The translations under genes and the position numbers were made by a program. 50,855 nucleotides of DNA, from assembly GCA_027295865.1 (NCBI GenBank), contig JAPUKB010000081.1:1-50855 (forward strand), read 5' to 3'. The notes beneath the pieces were generated by a model. The model did not search any database. It worked only from the letters and a program-made list of their open reading frames with translations, and was not told where the DNA came from. Positions 8,891 to 30,363 of the stretch are shown one piece after another (position 1 is the first letter of the stretch; every line of letters begins with the position of its first letter). This stretch comes from Nitrososphaerota archaeon. Its GTDB lineage: Archaea; Thermoproteota; Nitrososphaeria; Nitrososphaerales; UBA57.

Positions 8891-8988
8891 GCGGTCGTCG
8901 TCCAGTCCTCTCCTTGAAGAGGGGATAGTCTGGTCTAGGACATAGGCCCTCCAAGCCTGTAACAGGGGTTCAAATCCCCTCGGCCGCA
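8891..8988 (+). tRNA. tRNA-Gly (anticodon UCC) with a roughly 23-nt insert (candidate intron) in the D-loop
   Basis: The acceptor stem is GCGGTCG/CGGCCGC, the T arm AGGGG-TTCAAAT-CCCCT and the anticodon arm TAGGC-CCTCCAA-GCCTG. The D stem GTCC...GGAC encloses 34 nt. The discriminator is A and no CCA is encoded. Confidence 0.7.
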
Positions 8989-12710: not shown

Positions 12711-13874
12711 CTAGACGCCCCAACTCTTCGGAGTCATCGGCTCCTTCTTGCGGAAGCTGCCGTTAGATTTCTTGGCCCTAAGTTTTTCTACCATTTTTGC
12801 CTTTTCCGTGAGCCTATTGATCACTTCTATCTCGTGCAACCCGGAGAACATGACTACACTTGACAGTGATTTTGACATTGGCATCGGGTAGTCACCACCT
12901 CGGACCTCGGCTCCGGCTGTGACTTGTTCCAACCAAACACGGGCCTTGTCAATCCCCTGTCGGGAGATCTCTGATGGGGTCCCTGATACTATGAACATTG
13001 CTTTAGTGGCTGATGCGTAATTACACTCAGATGAAAGCATACCATTGGCCGCGTCTTGAATCAGAGAGAAACAGCGCGTGGTAGGATCAAGATCTTGAAC
13101 TGAGTGCCTCTTGAGGAATGGGAGGATCTTCTTTCCGACGTCCTTCACGACGGCGACACTTGACTTCTGCCAACCGCTATATCCCATAGTGACATAACCA
13201 GTTGTGGAATAGATAATATCAGATGCGTCAACGACTTTTACTCCGACTCTCGATGAAGAAGTCACCTCTCCCGCGCCTAGGAGAGTTAGGAATGGATCCA
13301 CGATCCTGTTATTCATTTCAATATACGTGTCCTTCATTGATAGGCCAGATGACTGCCAGATCTGGTTGTCCCAGAGGAAAATGGCATCGGCCTCTTCACT
13401 CATATTATGAAGACTCTTCGCGGCATTAAACGCCATAAGCTGGCCTTCGTCTTCTGATGGTAGGAGAGCGAGGGCGTACACTGGCTCACTATAGCTTTCT
13501 TTCAGAGCTCTTGCAATAATCGAAGAACCGCCGGAACCAGTACCTCCACCCATACCGGCAATTACAAGGAAAGCATCTATGTTATGCGTTCCATGCCGAC
13601 TAATCGCTCTCTTGATAAAATGAATGTCTTCTTCTGCCACTCGAGCTCCAAGGTCTGGGTTTCCGCCGGCTCCATGACCCTTAACTCGTGTTTGTCCGAT
13701 TAGGACTCTGCTGTCCATGGGAACATTCTTCAATCCCATTAGATCAGACTTTGCGGTATTGATGGCAATTGTGAATGGTAAAACACTCTTGTGCGAGGAC
13801 CATTCGTTCCTTGCCACAAATCTATCAACTACACTTCCTCCTCCCTGTCCGACTCCGATCAGCCCCAATCGCAA
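12711..13874 (-). CDS. cetZ: Tubulin/FtsZ-superfamily protein, CetZ type
   Basis: It contains LIGVGQGGGSVVDRF, AINTAKSDL, VKGHGAGGNPDLG and the T4 loop GMGGGTGSG. The start is TTG. Confidence 0.85.
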   Translation of the reverse strand: MRLGLIGVGQGGGSVVDRFVARNEWSSHKSVLPFTIAINTAKSDLMGLKNVPMDSRVLIGQTRVKGHGAGGNPDLGARVAEEDIHFIKRAISRHGTHNIDAFLVIAGMGGGTGSGGSSIIARALKESYSEPVYALALLPSEDEGQLMAFNAAKSLHNMSEEADAIFLWDNQIWQSSGLSMKDTYIEMNNRIVDPFLTLLGAGEVTSSSRVGVKVVDASDIIYSTTGYVTMGYSGWQKSSVAVVKDVGKKILPFLKRHSVQDLDPTTRCFSLIQDAANGMLSSECNYASATKAMFIVSGTPSEISRQGIDKARVWLEQVTAGAEVRGGDYPMPMSKSLSSVVMFSGLHEIEVINRLTEKAKMVEKLRAKKSNGSFRKKEPMTPKSWGV

Positions 13875-15203: not shown

Positions 15204-15256
15204 GTGTCAGAGGGATCTAAGGCGGGTGGAATTAATCCTTTCGTTCCGTCTCAAGG

Positions 15257-15341
15257 CGCCGGGAGTGGGATTCGAACCCACGATTCCTTTCGGAGACAGG
15301 GTTAGCAACCCTGCGCCCTAACCAGGCTAGGCGACCCCGGC
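15257..15341 (-). tRNA. tRNA-Ser (anticodon GCU), class II with a long variable arm
   Basis: The reverse complement reads GCCGGGG TC GCCT AGCCTGGTTA GGGC G CAGGG TTGCTAA CCCTG TCTCCGAAAGGAATC GTGGG TTCGAAT CCCAC TCCCGGC G. Confidence 0.9.
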
Positions 15342-15660: not shown

Positions 15661-15980
15661 GGATGGCGGCAGCCCCCTTAGGGTTCATGCAGCAGTCAGC
15701 TCCTTCTCCATACCATCTGAATCCTTCACGTAGACGCAATAGCGCAGCTGCCCTACTCTACGGATGCTCCCTCCCGGACCTGTCCGATTTCAGTAGTTGA
15801 AGAGTCACCCTTCCCTTCGAAAGGGCTATCTCTTGCAACCGCCCACTGCGGCGTGAGTTCATACCAGCAGAAATGGGAGGCTCACCACCTGCCACATTTT
15901 AGCTTAGGGTTACTGGCGCCGCGTATAGCCGGTTTCGGCATGGGGGACGGCTATCCCCCCAACCCTACCTACCGCCGAGT
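15661..15980 (-). ncRNA. ffs: Signal recognition particle RNA (7S / SRP RNA)
   Basis: The minus strand starts ACTCGGCGGTAGGTAGGGTTGGGGGGATAGCCGTCCCCCATGCCGAAACCGG, similar to my recollection of archaeal SRP RNA 5' domains. It also contains the helix-8-type motif CAGGTCCGGGAGGGAGCA, and the 3' segment GGCTGCCGCC pairs with the 5' GGCGGTAG. Confidence 0.75.
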
Positions 15981-21877: not shown

Positions 21878-22354
21878 GTGTGCAAACAAGAAATGGATCA
21901 GAAATATCCAGAACCGACTGTAGGGGCCCTAATTGTCAACAAACATGGAAAGATTTTGCTCGTGCGGTCTCACAAGTGGGTCAATGGCAGACTTACTGTT
22001 CCAGGAGGCCACATAGAGCTTGGGGAGTCCGCGGCTGACGCAATAATCAGGGAAGTGAAAGAGGAGACAGGGCTAGAAATTCTTCCTTCTAAGCTCCTTA
22101 TGGTTCAAGAAGCGATCTATTCCGATGACTTCTTCAAGAAAAAGCACTTCATCTTCTTTGACTTTGTATGCCAAGCTCTTTCCGAGGAGGTGAAACTCGA
22201 TCAAGACGAGTTGCAGGAGTACGACTGGTACGATGTAGATGAGGTCGAGGAATCAGTTCTTGAGCCATATACCAGGAACCTTATTGCGACCTACCGGAGG
22301 AATTCTACGTCAGGTCCCGACTCGATTTATCCGTCCTTTGATAACAACCGTTAA
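21878..22354 (+). CDS. Nudix hydrolase
   Basis: It has the Nudix box GGHIELGESAADAIIREVKEETGL. Confidence 0.85.
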   Translation: MCKQEMDQKYPEPTVGALIVNKHGKILLVRSHKWVNGRLTVPGGHIELGESAADAIIREVKEETGLEILPSKLLMVQEAIYSDDFFKKKHFIFFDFVCQALSEEVKLDQDELQEYDWYDVDEVEESVLEPYTRNLIATYRRNSTSGPDSIYPSFDNNR

Positions 22355-22388
22355 ACGTCGCAGCAATAGGTCAGACCCGCAACCTTTC

Positions 22389-23324
22389 TTGAGAATTATC
22401 AGCACTATTGATTTGCAACTAAAGAGGTTCAAAGAAGAGAAGTATATTCTTGTTCCTATTTTGGCCCCGATACTCGTGATCGCCATAACTGACTTCAGAT
22501 CGCTTTTTGCGATATGGAATCAGGGCCGCGGGGGATTCCTCATCGCCCTTTCCTTCCTAGCACTTGAGTTTTTTGACTCGAAAATCCGAATGAAACGCAC
22601 CTTCAGGAGGAACCTGGTTATCGTTCTGATAACTTTAGTGACCTCGGTCTACTTTGGGTCCACCTTATTGTTTGGGGTACATGATTGGCTATCGAGAGTA
22701 GGAGAGGGTTTTGGAGTAACGCTGCTCCCTAGTTGGGTAATCATGTGGGACTATGTCGTCTTCTCAGCTTTCCTTATGATAATCCTTGCCGTTAGGTACG
22801 GAGTTCGAGAACTACGCTCATTATTCTCGGCAAACGTCTATCTAACTGGGATGGCGGTGATCTTATCTTTGGATGCCCTTTTTCCTTTTGACACACTAGG
22901 ACCCCTACAAGCAATAGTACCACTTCTTCTGGGAGGTGTCAGGGAACTAGTCACCCTGTTCCAATTAGGCCAAATAGGTCTTACTGAGAATATATTGACT
23001 CTTTATGGGTCCGAGGGGACATTCTCATTTGCTGTTTTCTGGCCCTCGGCTGGAGTTCATAGCATGATCATCTATTCTCTCATCATGCTCATCTTTCTAG
23101 TCAAACTTGATATTTCGGCATTCAAGAAAATCATCTTCCTCTCGGCGGGGATTATTGGGACCTTCGCTGTAAATGTTTTCAGAATTTTCCTCCTTGCCGC
23201 GTACGTATTGACGGTCTCAACAAACCCCGCAAGGTTCGAAGAGTTCCATAATGTAGCTGGCGAAATAGTTTTTCTACCATGGATAATGGGGTATATCTTC
23301 TTTATCTACAGGCTGGCAAGATGA
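22389..23324 (+). CDS. Exosortase/archaeosortase-family integral membrane protein, with Ser at the expected catalytic Cys position
   Basis: The frame is open from 22239, but that stretch overlaps the Nudix gene; plausible TTG starts are at 22389 and 22413. The product is polytopic. Its C-terminal core FAVFWPSAGVHSMIIYS ... AVNVFRIFLLAAY ... FHNVAGEIVF matches the family pattern C-x-G / N-x-x-R / H-x-x-x-G, except that the first position is Ser (TCG at 23046-23048). Confidence 0.65.
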   Translation: MRIISTIDLQLKRFKEEKYILVPILAPILVIAITDFRSLFAIWNQGRGGFLIALSFLALEFFDSKIRMKRTFRRNLVIVLITLVTSVYFGSTLLFGVHDWLSRVGEGFGVTLLPSWVIMWDYVVFSAFLMIILAVRYGVRELRSLFSANVYLTGMAVILSLDALFPFDTLGPLQAIVPLLLGGVRELVTLFQLGQIGLTENILTLYGSEGTFSFAVFWPSAGVHSMIIYSLIMLIFLVKLDISAFKKIIFLSAGIIGTFAVNVFRIFLLAAYVLTVSTNPARFEEFHNVAGEIVFLPWIMGYIFFIYRLAR

Positions 23325-23361
23325 TGGAAGAGAAGATTGGAACGGTAATCGTGAAAGTCTA

Positions 23362-24807
23362 ATGACGCCGAAGGATCTTCTATTTGTAGTGTATTTGGTT
23401 ATCTCATGGATCCTTGTGCTTTATGGGACAAATCTCTACTATCTATTATTCAAATCTATTAGAAATCACAACCTCCCGTTGCGAAAGGCGTTGAATCCCG
23501 CACCCACCGTAACAATCCAACTGCCGGTATACAACGAGATGTACGTGGTTAGAAGACTTGTAACGTCAATTTGCAAGATCGACTATCCGAAATCAAATAT
23601 GGAGATTCAAGTCCTTGACGACTCTAACGACGATACCGTGACTATATGCAATGATGTTGTCGAAGAATTCAGGAAGCAGGGGTACGATATTGAACATATC
23701 CGACGGGGGACCAGGAGTGGCTTCAAAGCTGGCGCTCTTCAGTACGGACTTTCGCGCGCAAAGGGGGAGTTCGTTGCGATTTTCGATGCGGATTTCGTAC
23801 CGAACCCTGATTTTCTAACCCAGACACTTCCGTACTTCGCTTCAAGGGAAATTGGTTTGGTGCAAGCAAAATGGGGTCATCTCAATGAACAATACTCTTC
23901 TCTTACAAAGGCACAGGCACTCAGCTTGGACGCCCACTTTCTTATCGAGCAGAGAGCCAGGAGCTACTCTGCTCTATTCATGAACTTCAACGGAACTGCG
24001 GGAATCTGGAGGAAAGAGTGTTTAGAAGAGGTGGGGGGATGGAAAGCCTCTTTGGCTGAAGATCTTGACATTAGCCTTAGAGCACAATTGCAGGGCTGGA
24101 AACTAGTGTTCCTACCTGAATTGATCTGCCCCGCTGAACTTCCGGTCCAGATGAACGCTTCAAAGAGACAGCAGTTTAGATGGGCGAAGGGTTCGATTGA
24201 ATGCGCAATGAGACATACTAGGACTATACTTTTTTCTAAATTCCCTTTAGAGACCAAATTCCAAGCTTTCATGCAGCTTACGAGACATGTGATTCATCCC
24301 CTTATCATCGCCCAGTTCATCATACTCCCGATTCTGATGTTGGCAAAATTCGACCTTGCACCAGTAACAGCAATTCTGACGCAAATACTCCTAGGTCCAC
24401 CAATTTACGGCTACGCCTTAACTAGGCTTTATGGTAACCAATGGCTCAAGAAAGTTCCGGCCTACTTCTATCTTCTCCTCTTCGGAGCTGGCATCTCTGT
24501 CAATAACTCTGGGGCGCTAGCCCAGGCTTTGCTGAGGAAGAAAAGCGATTTTCTGCGTACCCCGAAGTTCGCGGTAAGAGGTCGGAAAGACGAGTGGAAG
24601 GGAAAACAATACGCCCTTCCCTTTACAGCGACCGCACTCGGTGAATCATTAATGGTAGGGTGGGGAGTTATCACTATCCTTGTAGCATTGCTTACAGGAA
24701 ACTTCTTCTTGCTCCCTCATATCGTGATCCTGACGCTAGGTTTCGCTTACGTTGCCTCTCTAACCGTGCTCCACTCAGTCGGAACAAGGACGACAGGGGC
24801 GGGCTGA
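23362..24807 (+). CDS. Processive family-2 glycosyltransferase (cellulose-synthase-like / CslA-like beta-glycan synthase)
   Basis: It has an N-terminal TM segment, the motifs VLDDSNDDT, FDADFVP, AEDLDIS and QQFRWAKG (D,D,D,QxxRW), and C-terminal TM helices. Confidence 0.85.
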   Translation: MTPKDLLFVVYLVISWILVLYGTNLYYLLFKSIRNHNLPLRKALNPAPTVTIQLPVYNEMYVVRRLVTSICKIDYPKSNMEIQVLDDSNDDTVTICNDVVEEFRKQGYDIEHIRRGTRSGFKAGALQYGLSRAKGEFVAIFDADFVPNPDFLTQTLPYFASREIGLVQAKWGHLNEQYSSLTKAQALSLDAHFLIEQRARSYSALFMNFNGTAGIWRKECLEEVGGWKASLAEDLDISLRAQLQGWKLVFLPELICPAELPVQMNASKRQQFRWAKGSIECAMRHTRTILFSKFPLETKFQAFMQLTRHVIHPLIIAQFIILPILMLAKFDLAPVTAILTQILLGPPIYGYALTRLYGNQWLKKVPAYFYLLLFGAGISVNNSGALAQALLRKKSDFLRTPKFAVRGRKDEWKGKQYALPFTATALGESLMVGWGVITILVALLTGNFFLLPHIVILTLGFAYVASLTVLHSVGTRTTGAG

Positions 24808-24811
24808 AAGA

Positions 24812-25315
24812 ATGAACCCAAGGACTGCTGCCCTGATGCTGATTGCGCTGATTGCGCTGGGAGGAATTCTCACATATGCCCATTACTTCAATACTTGGTA
24901 CGCAGTAGACAGAGGACGCGCACACCTTAGTAGAGCTGAAACATCGGCCTTTGCTGATGGAATGGCAGCCTCAATAAGTGAGGCAATTGAGCTTATTCCG
25001 CCAACCGGAAACCCGGTATGGTGGTTTCCCACCGCAAGAACGGACTTTGAACTGATCCAACATGATCTTAACGGATTCATTGAGAGGACTACGATACTCG
25101 AGGCGATGCCGAAGGAACGTGATGCGTATCAGCAAGGGATGGACGACCTTCGTGGGAAACTGAAGACCGTCCAAGAACAGCTTGGAGAAGCTTCAGCCTT
25201 CTTCTTCGTTGACCCTTTCAGTCTCCTCATCTCACTCTTCTGGATCATAGCAGTCTCGATAGTTCTTGCCTTAAGGTCTAGGGGGTTTGGGAAGGAAAAG
25301 ACGGCAGAACCCTGA
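24812..25315 (+). CDS. Two-TM protein (N- and C-terminal anchors) of unknown function, co-transcribed with the GT2 gene
   Basis: It lies 4 nt after the GT2 stop. The TM segments are AALMLIALIALGGIL and LLISLFWIIAVSIVLAL, with a helical extracytoplasmic middle. Confidence 0.5.
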   Translation: MNPRTAALMLIALIALGGILTYAHYFNTWYAVDRGRAHLSRAETSAFADGMAASISEAIELIPPTGNPVWWFPTARTDFELIQHDLNGFIERTTILEAMPKERDAYQQGMDDLRGKLKTVQEQLGEASAFFFVDPFSLLISLFWIIAVSIVLALRSRGFGKEKTAEP

Positions 25316-25356: not shown

Positions 25357-27072
25357 TTATTGTTTGGCAAGGGCCTTCCGCCAGACGAGGATTGCCACCA
25401 CGGCCTCCAGAATCAGGACTGACCCGGACACAGCGATAATAATGCTGGTATTCTGATCGAAGAGACTCTCCAAACTCAACTGTACGGAGGTAGTTTCCGA
25501 ATCAATTGCGAATTGCGTCTGGCTACTGATTCCGTTGACGGATGCTTCGACCTGGTATCTTCCTCCCGGGAGTCGAACGGATACAGTAGCTTCTCTCCAA
25601 TCTAGGCGGATAGGGTCGCTAGACAATGGATCAACACCTCTGATGATTATCTCTCCAGGTGGAGCTGGAAGTCCGAATGTATCCACTACATCGATCAAGA
25701 CTGTCCCCTCAGTTGCAAATATAGTAGTACTCGAGAGGCTTCTTAAACTCAGGGTAGTCGGTCTGGCTGATTTAACTATGATTGAGTCAATCGCAAGATC
25801 GAACTCGGTAATAATCTCTGCCTGAGGAAGAAGGACGAAGGTTGTATCACCCACCTTGGCTGTCTGGAGGTTGGTCGAGGTGAGATTTATGTCATAATTA
25901 AGTATCGATCGCCCTGTAAATTCGTTCTCAACATTGATTGTTGCTAAGAGAGGGGTCACTCGTGTTCGCCATAGGGATTCAAGCCCATCGACCTTTGCGG
26001 CCAAGATTATCTGGTAGCTTTTTGGACTCTCAAGAGGCTGATCAAAGGAATACCTCAAGGGGAAATCGAAGGACGAAAGGCGTACACGGGAGTCGGGATT
26101 AATAATGATCTCATTTGGAAATATCACAACAGGAATCCTTGCGACGTGGATGATCCCCTCAAATTCCAAGAAGACTGAAAGAAGGCTTCTCCCGTACTTC
26201 GGCGGGATTAGCCACGGCTTGTTTAGTTGTCCAATTGTAGGAATATCGATCGCGAGAACTTGACTAGGTTCTTCAGATACTGTTGCCGAGACCCTCGGGG
26301 TATCGGCAATCCCTTCATCTATGAATGTTAAGAAGAGGGATTCTCCAGTCCGCTTGGAGAGAGCAATCTCTGAGGACATTTCAGCCCACACATTCAGCGG
26401 TCCTAGAGCTTCGCCCTCATACTCAATGCCCAAATCCAGTCCAGCGGTCAGAGTTGGGGCGTGCAATGAGACCCAAATACGTCGCAGACCGTTCTCAACT
26501 TCAATTGATTCTAATCTAATGTTTATCGGGTTACCTTCAATTATCACGTTCGAGAAGATATCGACAGGGTCATCTTGCATCTGGCTGGTCAAGATAACCT
26601 CGACGGAGGTTGGAATTCCGTCCAGGTCTAGTGATACTGTCCCATCGATCAGTAAGGACCGTTCAGAAAGTGATAACCGCTCCTGATGAGAGATCGGTTC
26701 GATGAATTGCTCCCCTAGCTCAAGAAAAACGGAAAATGACCCAGCTCTCCCCTCGAAAGATAGAGTGTAAATTCCAAGCGGATCTTCATCTGAGAACGTA
26801 TGGACGCGGAATGGGTTTGTACCGATGGGTAATCGCACAATATCTGAATCATCCGGGCCAAGCAAACTTACAAATGCAGGAAATTGGGGAAATACCCATA
26901 GTGACTCTCCACGTACGAAAACAGGTATTCCGACATCAGAATCGAATAGATTCTCTGGAGAATAACCAATTCGCGCGCTGAGGTCCATTTCGACAATCTG
27001 AGCGCTCCCAGAGGGTACCAAGGGGATAAGAAGTGAAAGAAGTGTCGCTAGAAGGAAGATTCTATTTCTCAT
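25357..27072 (-). CDS. Large secreted, beta-rich protein with a signal peptide and a C-terminal TM anchor plus basic tail; function unknown
   Basis: The N-terminus is MRNRIFLLATLLSLLIPLVPSGSAQ and the C-terminus is IIIAVSGSVLILEAVVAILVWRKALAKQ. This is the last gene of the MoxR operon (ATGA overlap at 27069-27072). Confidence 0.6.
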   Translation of the reverse strand: MRNRIFLLATLLSLLIPLVPSGSAQIVEMDLSARIGYSPENLFDSDVGIPVFVRGESLWVFPQFPAFVSLLGPDDSDIVRLPIGTNPFRVHTFSDEDPLGIYTLSFEGRAGSFSVFLELGEQFIEPISHQERLSLSERSLLIDGTVSLDLDGIPTSVEVILTSQMQDDPVDIFSNVIIEGNPINIRLESIEVENGLRRIWVSLHAPTLTAGLDLGIEYEGEALGPLNVWAEMSSEIALSKRTGESLFLTFIDEGIADTPRVSATVSEEPSQVLAIDIPTIGQLNKPWLIPPKYGRSLLSVFLEFEGIIHVARIPVVIFPNEIIINPDSRVRLSSFDFPLRYSFDQPLESPKSYQIILAAKVDGLESLWRTRVTPLLATINVENEFTGRSILNYDINLTSTNLQTAKVGDTTFVLLPQAEIITEFDLAIDSIIVKSARPTTLSLRSLSSTTIFATEGTVLIDVVDTFGLPAPPGEIIIRGVDPLSSDPIRLDWREATVSVRLPGGRYQVEASVNGISSQTQFAIDSETTSVQLSLESLFDQNTSIIIAVSGSVLILEAVVAILVWRKALAKQ

Positions 27073-28082
27073 CTTTTCTTGCTTTCCCCAAAGAGTCTTG
27101 TTCTCATACTATCTCCGAGACCTATTAAAATAATAAGGGCCATCATGCCGATCAGACCCGACGTTAAGGCCAACTCGGCAGACCCGGTTAACAGTGAAAT
27201 TCCTACAATAAGGCCGATGTCAAGTGCCACTGCGAGGAGAATGGAAAAACCGATTGACGTGAGATTAGAAAAGCGCAATCTTGATGACCTTCTTACGCTT
27301 TGCTCAAGTGAGACGTCGTCCTCTGAATGTCTCCTGAACAGGCGATAGTAGATGAAGAGAGCAGCAGAAAGCGCAAATATTGTTCCCGTGTAAATCCTAC
27401 TTGCCCCCAACTGAAGTGATTGAGTCAAGGCCACCTCTGAGGGCGGGACCGGGATAGTTGTTTCAAGAATGTTCGCGATTACAAATTGAACAATAAAAAG
27501 GGTTTGAAGCAATACTCGTGTCCCTGCCTCTTCCAACACTCTCCCTGTGGATACGATCCCGCTAGGCGAAATCACAGTCGATAGGACAAAAGCAACTAGT
27601 CCATAGATCACCATGGTCATCAATACTGCCCCGGCGGGTGTCCCCTTACCACGTATTATCGAAGACGCGTGGCTCACAATGGCAATAATTGGGATGACAA
27701 TAGCAAGACTTGCGATACCCGCGAGGTACAAATCTGCTGCAGCCCCGAAGTAAAGTGGCAGCCTGTTACCAACTGGTGAAACCAGGAGGCCTACCATCAG
27801 AAGTGAGGGTAGGACGACGGGGATTGTGAGTGTGGCTATTAGGAAGGAATCTTGGGCAGCCCCTGAACCTGCTCTGATCCTGTACACGTAAGCTCCCACT
27901 CCTGCTACCGCCATGAAAGCTGAGATAGAGTTGAGGTTAACCGCGATGATGGAGCGGAGGAGAAGGAATATCGCATTCTGGTATTGGCCAGTTATCAATA
28001 TGAACAGGTATGGGGAAGCCATCCCACCAAAAAGTAGAATTGTAAGAATGAATGATCGTGGAGGGGTATTCTGAATTACCAA
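27069..28082 (-). CDS. Polytopic membrane protein (about 9-10 TM), function unknown
   Basis: The 337-aa product is hydrophobic throughout. It sits between the DUF58 gene and the secreted-protein gene. Confidence 0.55.
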   Translation of the reverse strand: MVIQNTPPRSFILTILLFGGMASPYLFILITGQYQNAIFLLLRSIIAVNLNSISAFMAVAGVGAYVYRIRAGSGAAQDSFLIATLTIPVVLPSLLMVGLLVSPVGNRLPLYFGAAADLYLAGIASLAIVIPIIAIVSHASSIIRGKGTPAGAVLMTMVIYGLVAFVLSTVISPSGIVSTGRVLEEAGTRVLLQTLFIVQFVIANILETTIPVPPSEVALTQSLQLGASRIYTGTIFALSAALFIYYRLFRRHSEDDVSLEQSVRRSSRLRFSNLTSIGFSILLAVALDIGLIVGISLLTGSAELALTSGLIGMMALIILIGLGDSMRTRLFGESKKR

Positions 28083-28083
28083 A

Positions 28084-29382
28084 TCAAGTCTCCAAAACTA
28101 GACTCGAGCGCGAGAATGCGTCGAGAGCTTTGATAACTAGATTACTCTGGGTACAGATCTGAGCTGAGATCCCGCTGGAGGCGAGCTGACTTAGTACCTC
28201 TTCGAGATGGCTCAATTCCCGATTGCCGATTATCCCACTTGCCTGAGTAACTCTGACATCTTCACCACTGTACGAGATGAAGGATGTGGTATCAAGAATA
28301 AGGGCGTGCGGGAATTGGTATTTGATGATGGCTCTCCTCAGGATCATTGGATCAACGGTCCTGGGATATGGAGAGTCCAAAACTAGCAAAATGAGTGATT
28401 TAGGTTTAGAGGCCGTAATCGCCGTGTTCATCACTGAGTCCAAGTCGAGATTGGGATCGGGCAATAAATTGTATATTCTTGATGCTATGTGCAAAGGGCT
28501 GCCATCAGCTCGTTCCCCCCTTCCCGCACGAGAATAGACCACTTGAAATTCTCCTCCGGTCTTCACTGCAAGGTGGGCAAGCACAATGGCAAGTTCAGCG
28601 GCAGCATCGAGTTTCCGTTTTCCGATCTCTCCCTCCCCCGTTGTGTCTGTGTTTAAGACCACTAGGGTAACGTTCAACGACTGCTCGTACTCATGTTCTT
28701 TCGTCTTGGGTAATCGCATCGGGGATTTGGCCATCGCCTTCCAGGCAACCTGCCGATAGTCATCTCCTGGATAATATTCTCTGATACCGCTGAATTCTGA
28801 TCCATGAGAAGTACTCACGGTCGAGCGCTTCAGCGGTTTCATCCCTATGTGTACCCTACCCCGGAGTAACTCCTCCCCGACTCTCATACTGGGGTAAACC
28901 TGGATTTCCGAATGAGATTGAACGTTCCTACTTCTCTTAAACATCCCGAATCTGTCGGTTATTATCAGCTCAATCTCTCCGACCTTCCAGCTACCCATTT
29001 GCAATGCCTTTAGATTATGCTCGACGGTTGTAGTCTTTCCCTTGGGGAGAGACTCGATCCAAAAATCGTTAGGCGCGTGTATCTTGAACGCGTATGGAAT
29101 TTTTTCTATAGCTAGAATAGGGCCTAAACTTGATCCTGAGTTTGTAAATTCGACGGTTAGTGGAATATCATCTCCAACAAAGGCCGTGCGAGCTCCGCTC
29201 TTTACCTCAACTTTGACAAGGTGAAGTCTACGACTTGAGTTAATGTAGAGGATGGATTCTACTCCCAAGATGGAGAGGACGAAGAGCGCGACGGTGGAAA
29301 AAACTCCATCGAATGCGAGAGTCGATGCCGCGACTAGGCCCAGGGTGGAGCTGAGTATAGACACCCCTCTCCTTGTAAGCAA
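28084..29382 (-). CDS. DUF58-family protein (vWA-like), N-terminally membrane anchored
   Basis: Two N-terminal TM segments are followed by the DUF58 signature GSEFSGIREYYPGDDYRQVAWKAMAK. It lies immediately downstream of MoxR, as is usual for this family. Confidence 0.85.
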   Translation of the reverse strand: MLTRRGVSILSSTLGLVAASTLAFDGVFSTVALFVLSILGVESILYINSSRRLHLVKVEVKSGARTAFVGDDIPLTVEFTNSGSSLGPILAIEKIPYAFKIHAPNDFWIESLPKGKTTTVEHNLKALQMGSWKVGEIELIITDRFGMFKRSRNVQSHSEIQVYPSMRVGEELLRGRVHIGMKPLKRSTVSTSHGSEFSGIREYYPGDDYRQVAWKAMAKSPMRLPKTKEHEYEQSLNVTLVVLNTDTTGEGEIGKRKLDAAAELAIVLAHLAVKTGGEFQVVYSRAGRGERADGSPLHIASRIYNLLPDPNLDLDSVMNTAITASKPKSLILLVLDSPYPRTVDPMILRRAIIKYQFPHALILDTTSFISYSGEDVRVTQASGIIGNRELSHLEEVLSQLASSGISAQICTQSNLVIKALDAFSRSSLVLET

Positions 29383-29388
29383 ATGATA

Positions 29389-30363
29389 TCATCTTGGGGG
29401 CTCGGTTGCCGAGATAGCAGTCGTGATGACATTGTTGACAGCATCATAGTTGTAGGGTCTGAGAGATCTGGCACTTCTAAGGACGTATTCCGGACTCAGT
29501 AGGATCCTATGATTCAAAGCGTGAAAGGTGAGGCTTTTTACATCATCAGGGGTAACATAGCTTTTGCCATTTATTGCCGCAAGTGCTCTGCTTGCAGCGA
29601 GAAGGTGGACAGAAGCCCGCGGACTCCCTCCCAACAAGACCTTCTCCTCGTCTAGTCTTGTAGCGCCCACAAGGGAGACAACATAATCCATGACTTCGTG
29701 AGATATTGTGACACTTTCCCTGATTTGATTTCTGGCGCTTGTTACCTCTTTTCCTGAGACAACGGCTTGAACGGTGCTAAGGTCTGTTGCTGCCGTAGCT
29801 CTATTTACTATCTCAATTTCATCTGATTTCTCAGGGACTTCGACAATAAGTCTTAACATGAATCTGTCAAGCTGGGCTTCTGGTAACGGATAGGTTCCCT
29901 GCATCTCGACAGGATTCTGAGTCGCGATCACAATGAAGGGATCAGGAAGTAATCTGGTTACCCCTTCAACGGTCACTTGCTTTTCTTGCATTGCTTCTAG
30001 AAGAGCGGATTGGGTTTTGGGTATGGCCCTGTTTATCTCGTCCGCTAGTACGACATTACCAAAGATCGGCCCCTCTCGGAAAATGAATTGTTGATCTTTT
30101 GCATTGAAAATGAATGTGCCAGTTATATCCGCGGGCAACATGTCTGGCGTCAACTGAATCCTCTTGAAGTCGAGCCCCAACGCCTTCGCGAATGCTTTTG
30201 CTATCAGGGTTTTGGCTACCCCCGGGACGCCTTCTAATAGGACGTGACCATCTGCCAATAACCCCACGGAAAGTAATTTGATAGTCTCACTTTTTCCAAC
30301 AACAATTTTAGAGATCTCGTTCTCCAGCTTGAAGTAAAGATTCTTAGCTTCGATCTGAGTCAT
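29389..30363 (-). CDS. MoxR-family AAA+ ATPase
   Basis: It has Walker A LLEGVPGVAKT, Walker B VVLADEINRAIPKTQSALLEAMQE, ATQNP and the C-terminal lid GGSPRASVHL. Confidence 0.92.
   Translation of the reverse strand: MTQIEAKNLYFKLENEISKIVVGKSETIKLLSVGLLADGHVLLEGVPGVAKTLIAKAFAKALGLDFKRIQLTPDMLPADITGTFIFNAKDQQFIFREGPIFGNVVLADEINRAIPKTQSALLEAMQEKQVTVEGVTRLLPDPFIVIATQNPVEMQGTYPLPEAQLDRFMLRLIVEVPEKSDEIEIVNRATAATDLSTVQAVVSGKEVTSARNQIRESVTISHEVMDYVVSLVGATRLDEEKVLLGGSPRASVHLLAASRALAAINGKSYVTPDDVKSLTFHALNHRILLSPEYVLRSARSLRPYNYDAVNNVITTAISATEPPR

Follow-up and report, generated by a model that had tools for sequence, protein, structure and literature searches.

The locus described here raises the question of whether a family of membrane transpeptidases with a cysteine at its active site can also work with serine, and what such an enzyme might do beside a polysaccharide synthase. 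It lies in a stretch of 50,855 nucleotides from a Nitrososphaerota archaeon (contig JAPUKB010000081.1), the whole of which is called the window below. Here a polytopic membrane protein of the exosortase/archaeosortase family is followed by a processive family-2 glycosyltransferase (GT2) and by a protein with two transmembrane (TM) helices. A first-pass annotation had singled out the arrangement as a serine variant coupled to a synthase. We give a probability of roughly six in ten to the reading in which the window gene is a divergent thaumarchaeosortase with an active serine, acts on substrates with PEF/PEFG-type tails, and sits in a lineage-specific GT2 cassette. The features on which the argument turns are the following.

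21878-22354, plus strand: NUDIX hydrolase gene, upstream of the sortase
22389-23324, plus strand (probable start): thaumarchaeosortase-like gene, a polytopic membrane protein with matches to TIGR04297 and TIGR04178
23040-23054, plus strand: W-P-S-A-G motif (TGG CCC TCG GCT GGA)
23046-23048, plus strand: serine codon TCG in the nucleophile column, placed by profile alignment
23172-23183, plus strand: N-V-F-R motif, with the family's conserved Asn and Arg
23247-23261, plus strand: H-N-V-A-G motif, with the family's conserved His and Gly
23362-24807, plus strand: BcsA-like processive GT2, 481 aa, with N- and C-terminal TM helices
23614-23631, 23782-23796, 24055-24069 and 24169-24183, plus strand: GT2 motifs LDDSND, FDADF, AEDLD and QQFRW, respectively
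24812-25315, plus strand: synthase accessory module (the two-TM partner), 167 aa
25007-25033 and 25127-25159, plus strand: conserved motifs of the accessory module, GNPVWWFPT and YQQGMDDLRGK, respectively

Family membership and the nucleophile column

The sole strong full-length match to the window protein is the NCBIfam model TIGR04297, "thaumarchaeosortase" (E 4.3e-70, 236.6 bits, model positions 7-286 of 307). No other specific NCBIfam model comes near this score, and the weak matches are to archaeosortase C (TIGR03762, E 1.1e-4) and cyanoexosortase A. The superfamily signature TIGR04178 is matched at 41.0 bits, over its cutoff of 23, which together with the TIGR04297 match confirms the family membership first proposed. 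Among 5.8 billion proteins there are 2875 relatives, many of which carry the NCBI/JGI name thaumarchaeosortase; one that is 47% identical and comes from the same gene block (P0010) already bears that name at NCBI. Identity to members from ammonia oxidisers is 40-49%. The nearest public genome is a Thaumarchaeota metagenome-assembled genome (MAG; L001, 90% identity for the sortase), a metagenome contig (L095) is 98-99% identical, and the closest genome loci all belong to Thaumarchaeota or Nitrososphaerales MAGs, in keeping with the taxonomic range of thaumarchaeosortase. Two scores speak on the other side: the protein lies under the curated TIGR04297 cutoff (236.6 against 250), and its Pfam PF09721 score is just short of threshold (24.9 against 25.7). 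Being just under the TIGR04297 cutoff, it would be under-named in genome annotation. As judged from its sequence, the window gene is a divergent thaumarchaeosortase, within the exosortase/archaeosortase branch of Nitrososphaeria (Thaumarchaeota) that has serine at the nucleophile position.

The reading frame is open from ATG 22239 to 23324 on the plus strand, its first 116 nt overlapping the NUDIX gene, while homologues start at or just past the NUDIX stop. A TTG start is therefore likelier, probably that at 22389 (311 aa) or at 22338 (328 aa), and the serine first numbered Ser270 becomes Ser220 in the shorter form or Ser237 in the longer. Hydropathy indicates at least six TM segments, and the AlphaFold2 (AF2) model, with a confidence score (pLDDT) of 79.4, is all-helical plus one beta-hairpin region. 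In this model the serine lies between a strand and helix 223-239, the arginine within helix 244-275, and the histidine opens helix 280-310. Hydropathy and AF2 thus put each of the conserved residues at an end of one of three successive TM helices in the C-terminal part, as in the superfamily at large. These ends are inferred to be extracytoplasmic, with the positive-inside rule as the only guide to sidedness (a basic KLDISAFKK loop and a YRLAR tail). A sequence search of solved structures with the sortase family profile found nothing related, nor did a comparison of folds with the AF2 model as query bring up any match at E <= 0.001, so there is no exosortase structure with which to compare it.

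The serine had been assigned to the catalytic cysteine column by eye, and profile alignment agrees with that assignment. When 267 homologues were aligned to the sortase profile, the column, within W-P-[S/C]-[A/S]-G, held serine in 171, cysteine in 70 and asparagine in 1, a total of 242. The Asn of NxxR is present in 242 of 244 aligned homologues and its Arg in all 244; the His and the Gly of HxxxG are each present in 239 of 241, and all four residues are kept in serine and cysteine forms alike. In the cysteine forms P0268 and P0225, as in the serine forms of the window, P0138 and P0287, the nucleophile falls at about position 7 of TIGR04178. No true cysteine occupies the catalytic column elsewhere in the window protein. 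The open reading frame (ORF) contains no cysteine at all and therefore offers no alternative cysteine nucleophile; 84 of 153 full-length serine forms are likewise free of cysteine. A profile from 27 diverse members, searched against 1.84 billion cluster representatives, gave 328 matches in a continuum from 1e-142 down, and serine is invariant in 27 diverse members of thaumarchaeosortase. The clade of serine forms whose existence had been left as a question is thus real.

The first-pass annotation also gave the motifs, the TCG at 23046-23048 and the short spacing of the three genes (37 nt between sortase and GT2, 4 nt between GT2 and partner) correctly, and it noted that TCG is two base changes from TGT or TGC. 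Its view that a sequencing error would not explain the serine is upheld by the 81 genomic copies of the gene (80 genome loci and the window), every one of which has a TCN codon at the site: TCT in 37, TCG in 20, TCA in 14 and TCC in 10, with no AGY and no cysteine codon. Drift at the third base thus leaves the amino acid constant, a pattern which argues that the serine is kept by selection and not by accident. Where the first-pass annotation went wrong was in its central claim of novelty. The variant that it took to be undescribed is already curated as TIGR04297, under a name in NCBI/JGI use, and the serine state is normal for that catalogued family. Serine in place of cysteine is indeed a defining trait of the thaumarchaeosortase branch, and no ground for excluding it from the superfamily. 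The curator's comment on TIGR04297 presumably mentions the serine. In the searchable literature of about 8.3 million papers the name "thaumarchaeosortase" was not found, PEFG-CTERM (TIGR04296) occurs in four, as an annotation label only, and a search for a serine-type exosortase found nothing relevant.

The distribution of the two residues seems to go beyond the catalogue. When 99 full-length representatives (53 with cysteine and 46 with serine) are placed on a neighbour-joining tree, parsimony calls for at least eight Cys/Ser changes, a count to be read as approximate because the tree is a rough distance tree, which takes some force from the argument. Independently of the tree, several serine forms have cysteine forms as their nearest relatives, at 45-51% identity. 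Repeated exchange with the arginine and histidine kept fits both residues acting as nucleophile, rather than a decaying paralogue. The residues that co-vary with serine or cysteine differ in ways that look phylogenetic; a glutamate three residues ahead of the histidine is enriched in serine forms, though not in the serine islands.

The synthase neighbour and the reach of the cassette

The gene downstream of the sortase had been identified as a processive GT2, and this stands. It has the D, DxD, (T)ED and QxxRW motifs (LDDSND, FDADF, AEDLD and QQFRW), and the nearest solved structures are those of the bacterial cellulose synthase BcsA (E 2e-21 to 2e-19), with GT2 residues 19-442 aligning to BcsA 108-541 (4HG6/4P00) through both the catalytic and the membrane regions. 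The protein scores far under the equivalog cutoffs for cellulose and poly-N-acetylglucosamine (PNAG) synthases, and for that reason no polymer is assigned. Orthologous GT2s in ammonia oxidisers are 50-52% identical and about 672 aa long.

Within the window's sub-lineage the three genes occur together, with gaps of at most 37 nt or overlapping, in three flank contexts: the NUDIX to DUF58 block (the window, L001-L003, L095 and L130-132), the UBA141-type loci (L004, L086, L087 and L111) and L092. Sortase, GT2 and partner thus form a real lineage-specific cassette, which is not a property of the family. The proposal that the GT2 neighbour is conserved holds for this sub-lineage and fails beyond it: among the 80 genome loci, GT2 and partner adjoin the sortase only in the four closest (L001-L004), and 71 have no GT2, the sortase being flanked on one side by an Nre-like gene and on the other by one for a DinB-like polymerase.

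Does the adjacency reflect function? We place functional coupling of the sortase to the synthase, as suggested by gene order, at about even odds. The competing explanation is that the adjacency is happenstance, the sortase acting on PEFG-CTERM proteins encoded elsewhere while the GT2 and its module make up an independent polysaccharide synthase, and this is quite possible, if somewhat short of an even chance. Several observations favour it and count against coupling. The genes are unlinked in the 71 loci just mentioned; the GT2 of ammonia oxidisers, which is fused to the module, has housekeeping neighbours and no sortase beside it; five of the seven partner-centred metagenome loci with sufficient upstream DNA lack a sortase (L104, L105, L107, L119 and L124); and the divergent sortases L083, L088, L090 and L093 have no such GT2 nearby. 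With the link absent across most of the family, the coupling may be incidental or lineage-specific. Moreover, most instances of the cassette share a wider synteny, from NUDIX to DUF58, and the GT2 that adjoins the L094 sortase is no detectable relative of that in the window. Happenstance sits less well with the UBA141-type loci and L092, where the three genes stay joined while all flanks differ, and with the tight or overlapping spacing, which suggests co-transcription. It must also accommodate an independent pairing at L081/L082, where a distant Ser-type sortase (38% identity) is convergent to a related GT2 (35% identity), and the bacterial exosortase-GT2 pairs that have been curated (XrtG, XrtP).

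As a whole the window covers a stretch of housekeeping genes in an archaeal chromosome (CarAB, CetZ, IlvC, TatC, a MoxR-DUF58 operon, RtcA, AlaRS, LeuRS and signal recognition particle (SRP) RNA), its archaeal origin being confirmed by a tRNA-Ser(GCT) and an archaeal SRP RNA. The features outside the cassette that concern us are these.

12711-13874, minus strand: CetZ-type tubulin homologue
15255-15341, minus strand: tRNA-Ser(GCT)
15667-15974, minus strand: archaeal SRP RNA
25357-27072, minus strand: orf571, a 571-aa secreted protein with a signal peptide, a C-terminal TM helix and a basic tail
27069-28082, minus strand: polytopic membrane protein of 337 aa
28084-29382, minus strand: DUF58 protein
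29389-30363, minus strand: MoxR AAA+ ATPase

The MoxR-DUF58 operon (25357-30363, minus strand) is convergent on the sortase cassette, a synteny kept in L001-L003 and L130-132, and two of its products, orf571 and the 337-aa membrane protein, have no family match. L083 likewise has a CetZ gene close to its divergent sortase. At 8926-8980 on the plus strand Rfam gives a weak match to part of a tRNA (31 bits, model positions 8-63) that ARAGORN does not report; an archaeal tRNA with an intron or some other unusual feature may lie behind it, or it may be due to chance.

Candidate substrates, the proposed reaction and the accessory module

PEFG-CTERM (TIGR04296) is the curated cognate sorting signal of thaumarchaeosortase, and PEF/PEFG-type tails were found in the related loci L007, L017, L022 and L092. 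In the Nitrosopumilaceae locus L007 (10895-12841, minus strand) a 648-aa protein resembling the substrate-binding proteins of branched-chain amino-acid/urea ATP-binding cassette (ABC) transporters lies about 5 kb from the thaumarchaeosortase, and likewise in L017 and L022. Its tail, VPEFGEIGMAVLAAGLIAIVVFTVRYR, reaches the PEFG-CTERM cutoff (25.3 against 25), and it would be a solute-binding protein anchored via the thaumarchaeosortase system. Other tails lie closer to the sortase. A 160-aa secreted protein ending PEFPTH...RKKR is encoded directly upstream of the Cys-type relative in L088, a 446-aa protein of CarboxypepD_reg repeats ending VPEFPSG...RIRNGK lies 23 nt upstream of the Ser-type relative in L094, and in L092 the gene that follows the sortase-GT2-partner cassette has the tail IPEFPAAT...TKRG. 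Since PEF-type tails adjoin both forms, the cysteine and serine enzymes appear, from this adjacency, to serve the same kind of signal.

In three loci (L083 5295-7005, L088 1593-8618 and L090 4903-13460) divergent sortases from the mixed Cys/Ser clade have another neighbourhood in common: an ATPase of KaiC-like type (PF06745/DUF7125), a further ATPase carrying CarboxypepD_reg and DUF7504 domains, and a convergent secreted protein of 830-885 aa with a TM helix near its C-terminus, one of which has an M6 metalloprotease domain.

In the reaction that we propose, the Ser of WPSAG, the Arg of NxxR and the His of HxxxG would form an active site at the extracytoplasmic ends of three TM helices. The serine would attack the peptide bond beside the PEF/PEFG-type signal (motif, TM helix and basic cluster) of secreted surface proteins, and the resulting acyl-ester intermediate would be resolved by water or by a lipid or glycan acceptor. 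It seems fairly probable that the protein is such an active Ser-Arg-His intramembrane peptidase or transpeptidase, working at the outer face of the membrane on C-terminal anchors of PEF/PEFG type. The composition of the cassette suggests that the processing of surface proteins may be coordinated with the secretion of a beta-linked polysaccharide. Points against an active serine must be set beside this. A plain change of cysteine to serine mostly inactivates cysteine transpeptidases, no PEF/PEFG-type tail is found in any frame of the 50.9-kb window, and in the literature we found no report of activity for any thaumarchaeosortase.

The first-pass annotation had left two possibilities, a switch of nucleophile or a non-catalytic paralogue. 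The second would make the serine form a pseudo-enzyme without peptidase activity, serving as a scaffold, receiving or chaperoning C-terminal anchors, or acting as a structural partner of the synthase. We think this improbable, although it has real arguments behind it. The cysteine of the superfamily is regarded as the essential nucleophile, and in ArtA Cys173, like Arg214 and Arg253, is critical to activity (review PMC9263693); no report of activity for a serine member was found in the literature; and a tight cassette with a synthase would also fit a structural role. Dead paralogues, however, normally lose the other catalytic residues, and here the arginine and histidine are near-invariant in about 240 sequences. 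Nor would one expect a dispensable serine to stay invariant through synonymous codon drift, to alternate with cysteine at least eight times among close relatives, or to adjoin PEF-type tail proteins as the cysteine forms do. Furthermore, no Cys-type paralogue was seen beside the serine gene in the loci examined, for which about 12 kb per genome was read. The switch of nucleophile thus appears the better supported of the two, through the retained arginine and histidine, the repeated swaps and the PEF-type tails beside both forms.

A broader proposal can be framed, which we put forward as tentative and, taken whole, rather unlikely. The PEF/PEFG-associated archaeosortase clade would toggle between cysteine and serine nucleophiles (at least eight swaps, with Arg and His unchanged), both forms being active intramembrane (trans)peptidases. 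In the window lineage the serine enzyme would in addition be tied to a BcsA-like synthase in split form, and surface proteins would thereby be processed at the secreted polysaccharide or become attached to it.

The two-TM protein had been taken for a partner of the sortase. It does have TM anchors at both ends, and in its AF2 model (pLDDT 88.3) two TM helices enclose a four-helix bundle on the extracytoplasmic side, the second of them being followed by a basic tail; a fold search of the PDB gave only a generic four-helix-bundle or NarQ-like likeness, with all E > 0.1. Its 71 relatives in 5.8 billion sequences are all annotated as hypothetical, and no homologue was found in the viral collection. 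The C-terminal 170 or so residues of the ammonia-oxidiser GT2 are this same module (hhalign 99.9%, E 2.4e-31, against residues 505-671 of P0465 from Nitrosotalea sinensis), and a GT2 is directly upstream or fused in 27 of 33 partner-centred metagenome loci. Because of this fusion and this adjacency we regard the partner, on comparative grounds, as a subunit of the synthase that was split off in the window lineage and not as a target of the sortase. The rival view, in which it would be the sortase's dedicated substrate, with its first helix a signal anchor and its last TM helix and basic tail a private sorting signal, draws on its place in the cassette and on its being, with orf571, the only product of the window to join an N-terminal hydrophobic segment to a C-terminal TM helix and basic tail; we reject it as very improbable, because neither tail matches any curated sorting-signal model, no conserved PEF-like motif precedes the TM helix, the fused module's first helix cannot be a cleaved signal, the module follows the GT2 and not the sortase in those 27 loci, and an invariant Trp within the last TM helix fits a structural role. 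As a candidate substrate orf571 was also rejected: it lacks a PEF motif, and its gene is part of the MoxR-DUF58 operon, which runs on the other strand.

Stand-alone module homologues without an adjacent GT2 occur in L115 (5001-5456), L126 (5001-5390) and L114, at 31-36% identity; that of L126 lies amid several small single-pass membrane proteins. The most divergent homologue, 38% identical and also stand-alone, is at 6001-6486 of L084 (the same contig as L116; JGI Ga0315310_10000207, 39.6 kb), surrounded by dozens of small same-strand ORFs, among them those for a DNA ligase, a clamp-loader-like protein and endonucleases of the HNH and LAGLIDADG types. This setting looks virus-like or mobile-element-like; no structural genes were identified.

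What seems to be added to the existing catalogue is the repeated interchange of cysteine and serine in the wider clade, a four-helix-bundle synthase module that is split or fused, and a lineage-specific sortase-synthase cassette. Essentially all ammonia-oxidising archaea have a thaumarchaeosortase, which presumably anchors their surface proteins, and these archaea are among the most abundant microbes of oceans and soils. If the serine form is active, the intramembrane transpeptidase fold works with either nucleophile, and natural Cys/Ser pairs provide material for studies of mechanism. The cassette offers a handle on whether an archaeal sortase cooperates with polysaccharide secretion, as has been suspected for bacterial exosortases, and the four-helix-bundle module is a conserved, uncharacterised subunit of the phylum's main BcsA-like synthase.

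Comparison with known systems

The closest known relative is thaumarchaeosortase itself (TIGR04297, with PEFG-CTERM, TIGR04296), which is thaumarchaeal, gives the best full-length hidden Markov model match and shares the WPSAGVHS, NxxR and HxxxG core with its serine. The window member differs in falling under the model's cutoff, in having no PEFG-CTERM protein in the window, and in its GT2 cassette, which the enzymes of ammonia oxidisers lack. Archaeosortase C with PEF-CTERM (TIGR03762/TIGR03024) has the superfamily signature in common, and relatives of the window protein, cysteine and serine forms alike, adjoin PEF-type tails. ArtA of Haloferax volcanii, the experimentally studied model, has the same signature domain as the window sortase. 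Both archaeosortase C and ArtA are cysteine enzymes, however, and ArtA has PGF-CTERM as its signal and is associated with the attachment of lipid rather than with a glycan synthase.

For the synthase, the BcsA-BcsB and PgaC-PgaD pairs provide the parallel of a processive membrane GT2 (D, DxD, ED, QxxRW) whose small accessory subunit is anchored in the membrane and encoded by the next gene downstream. The window GT2, by contrast, has no PilZ domain, and its accessory protein is unrelated in fold, with two TM helices flanking a four-helix bundle. An exosortase-family gene beside a family-2 glycosyltransferase is found in bacteria with XrtG (GT2 model TIGR03111), XrtP (GT2 model NF053846) and the EpsH/XrtA exopolysaccharide loci. 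The window GT2 matches the XrtG- and XrtP-associated GT2 models weakly (45 against a cutoff of 364, and 36 against 520), and the cysteine relative P0268 weakly matches XrtG. With scores so far under the cutoffs these systems are to be seen as analogues and not as orthologues; the enzymes in bacteria are cysteine forms, and the archaeal cassette adds the four-helix-bundle subunit. The curated XrtG- and XrtP-associated GT2 families are nevertheless the nearest precedent for the cassette.

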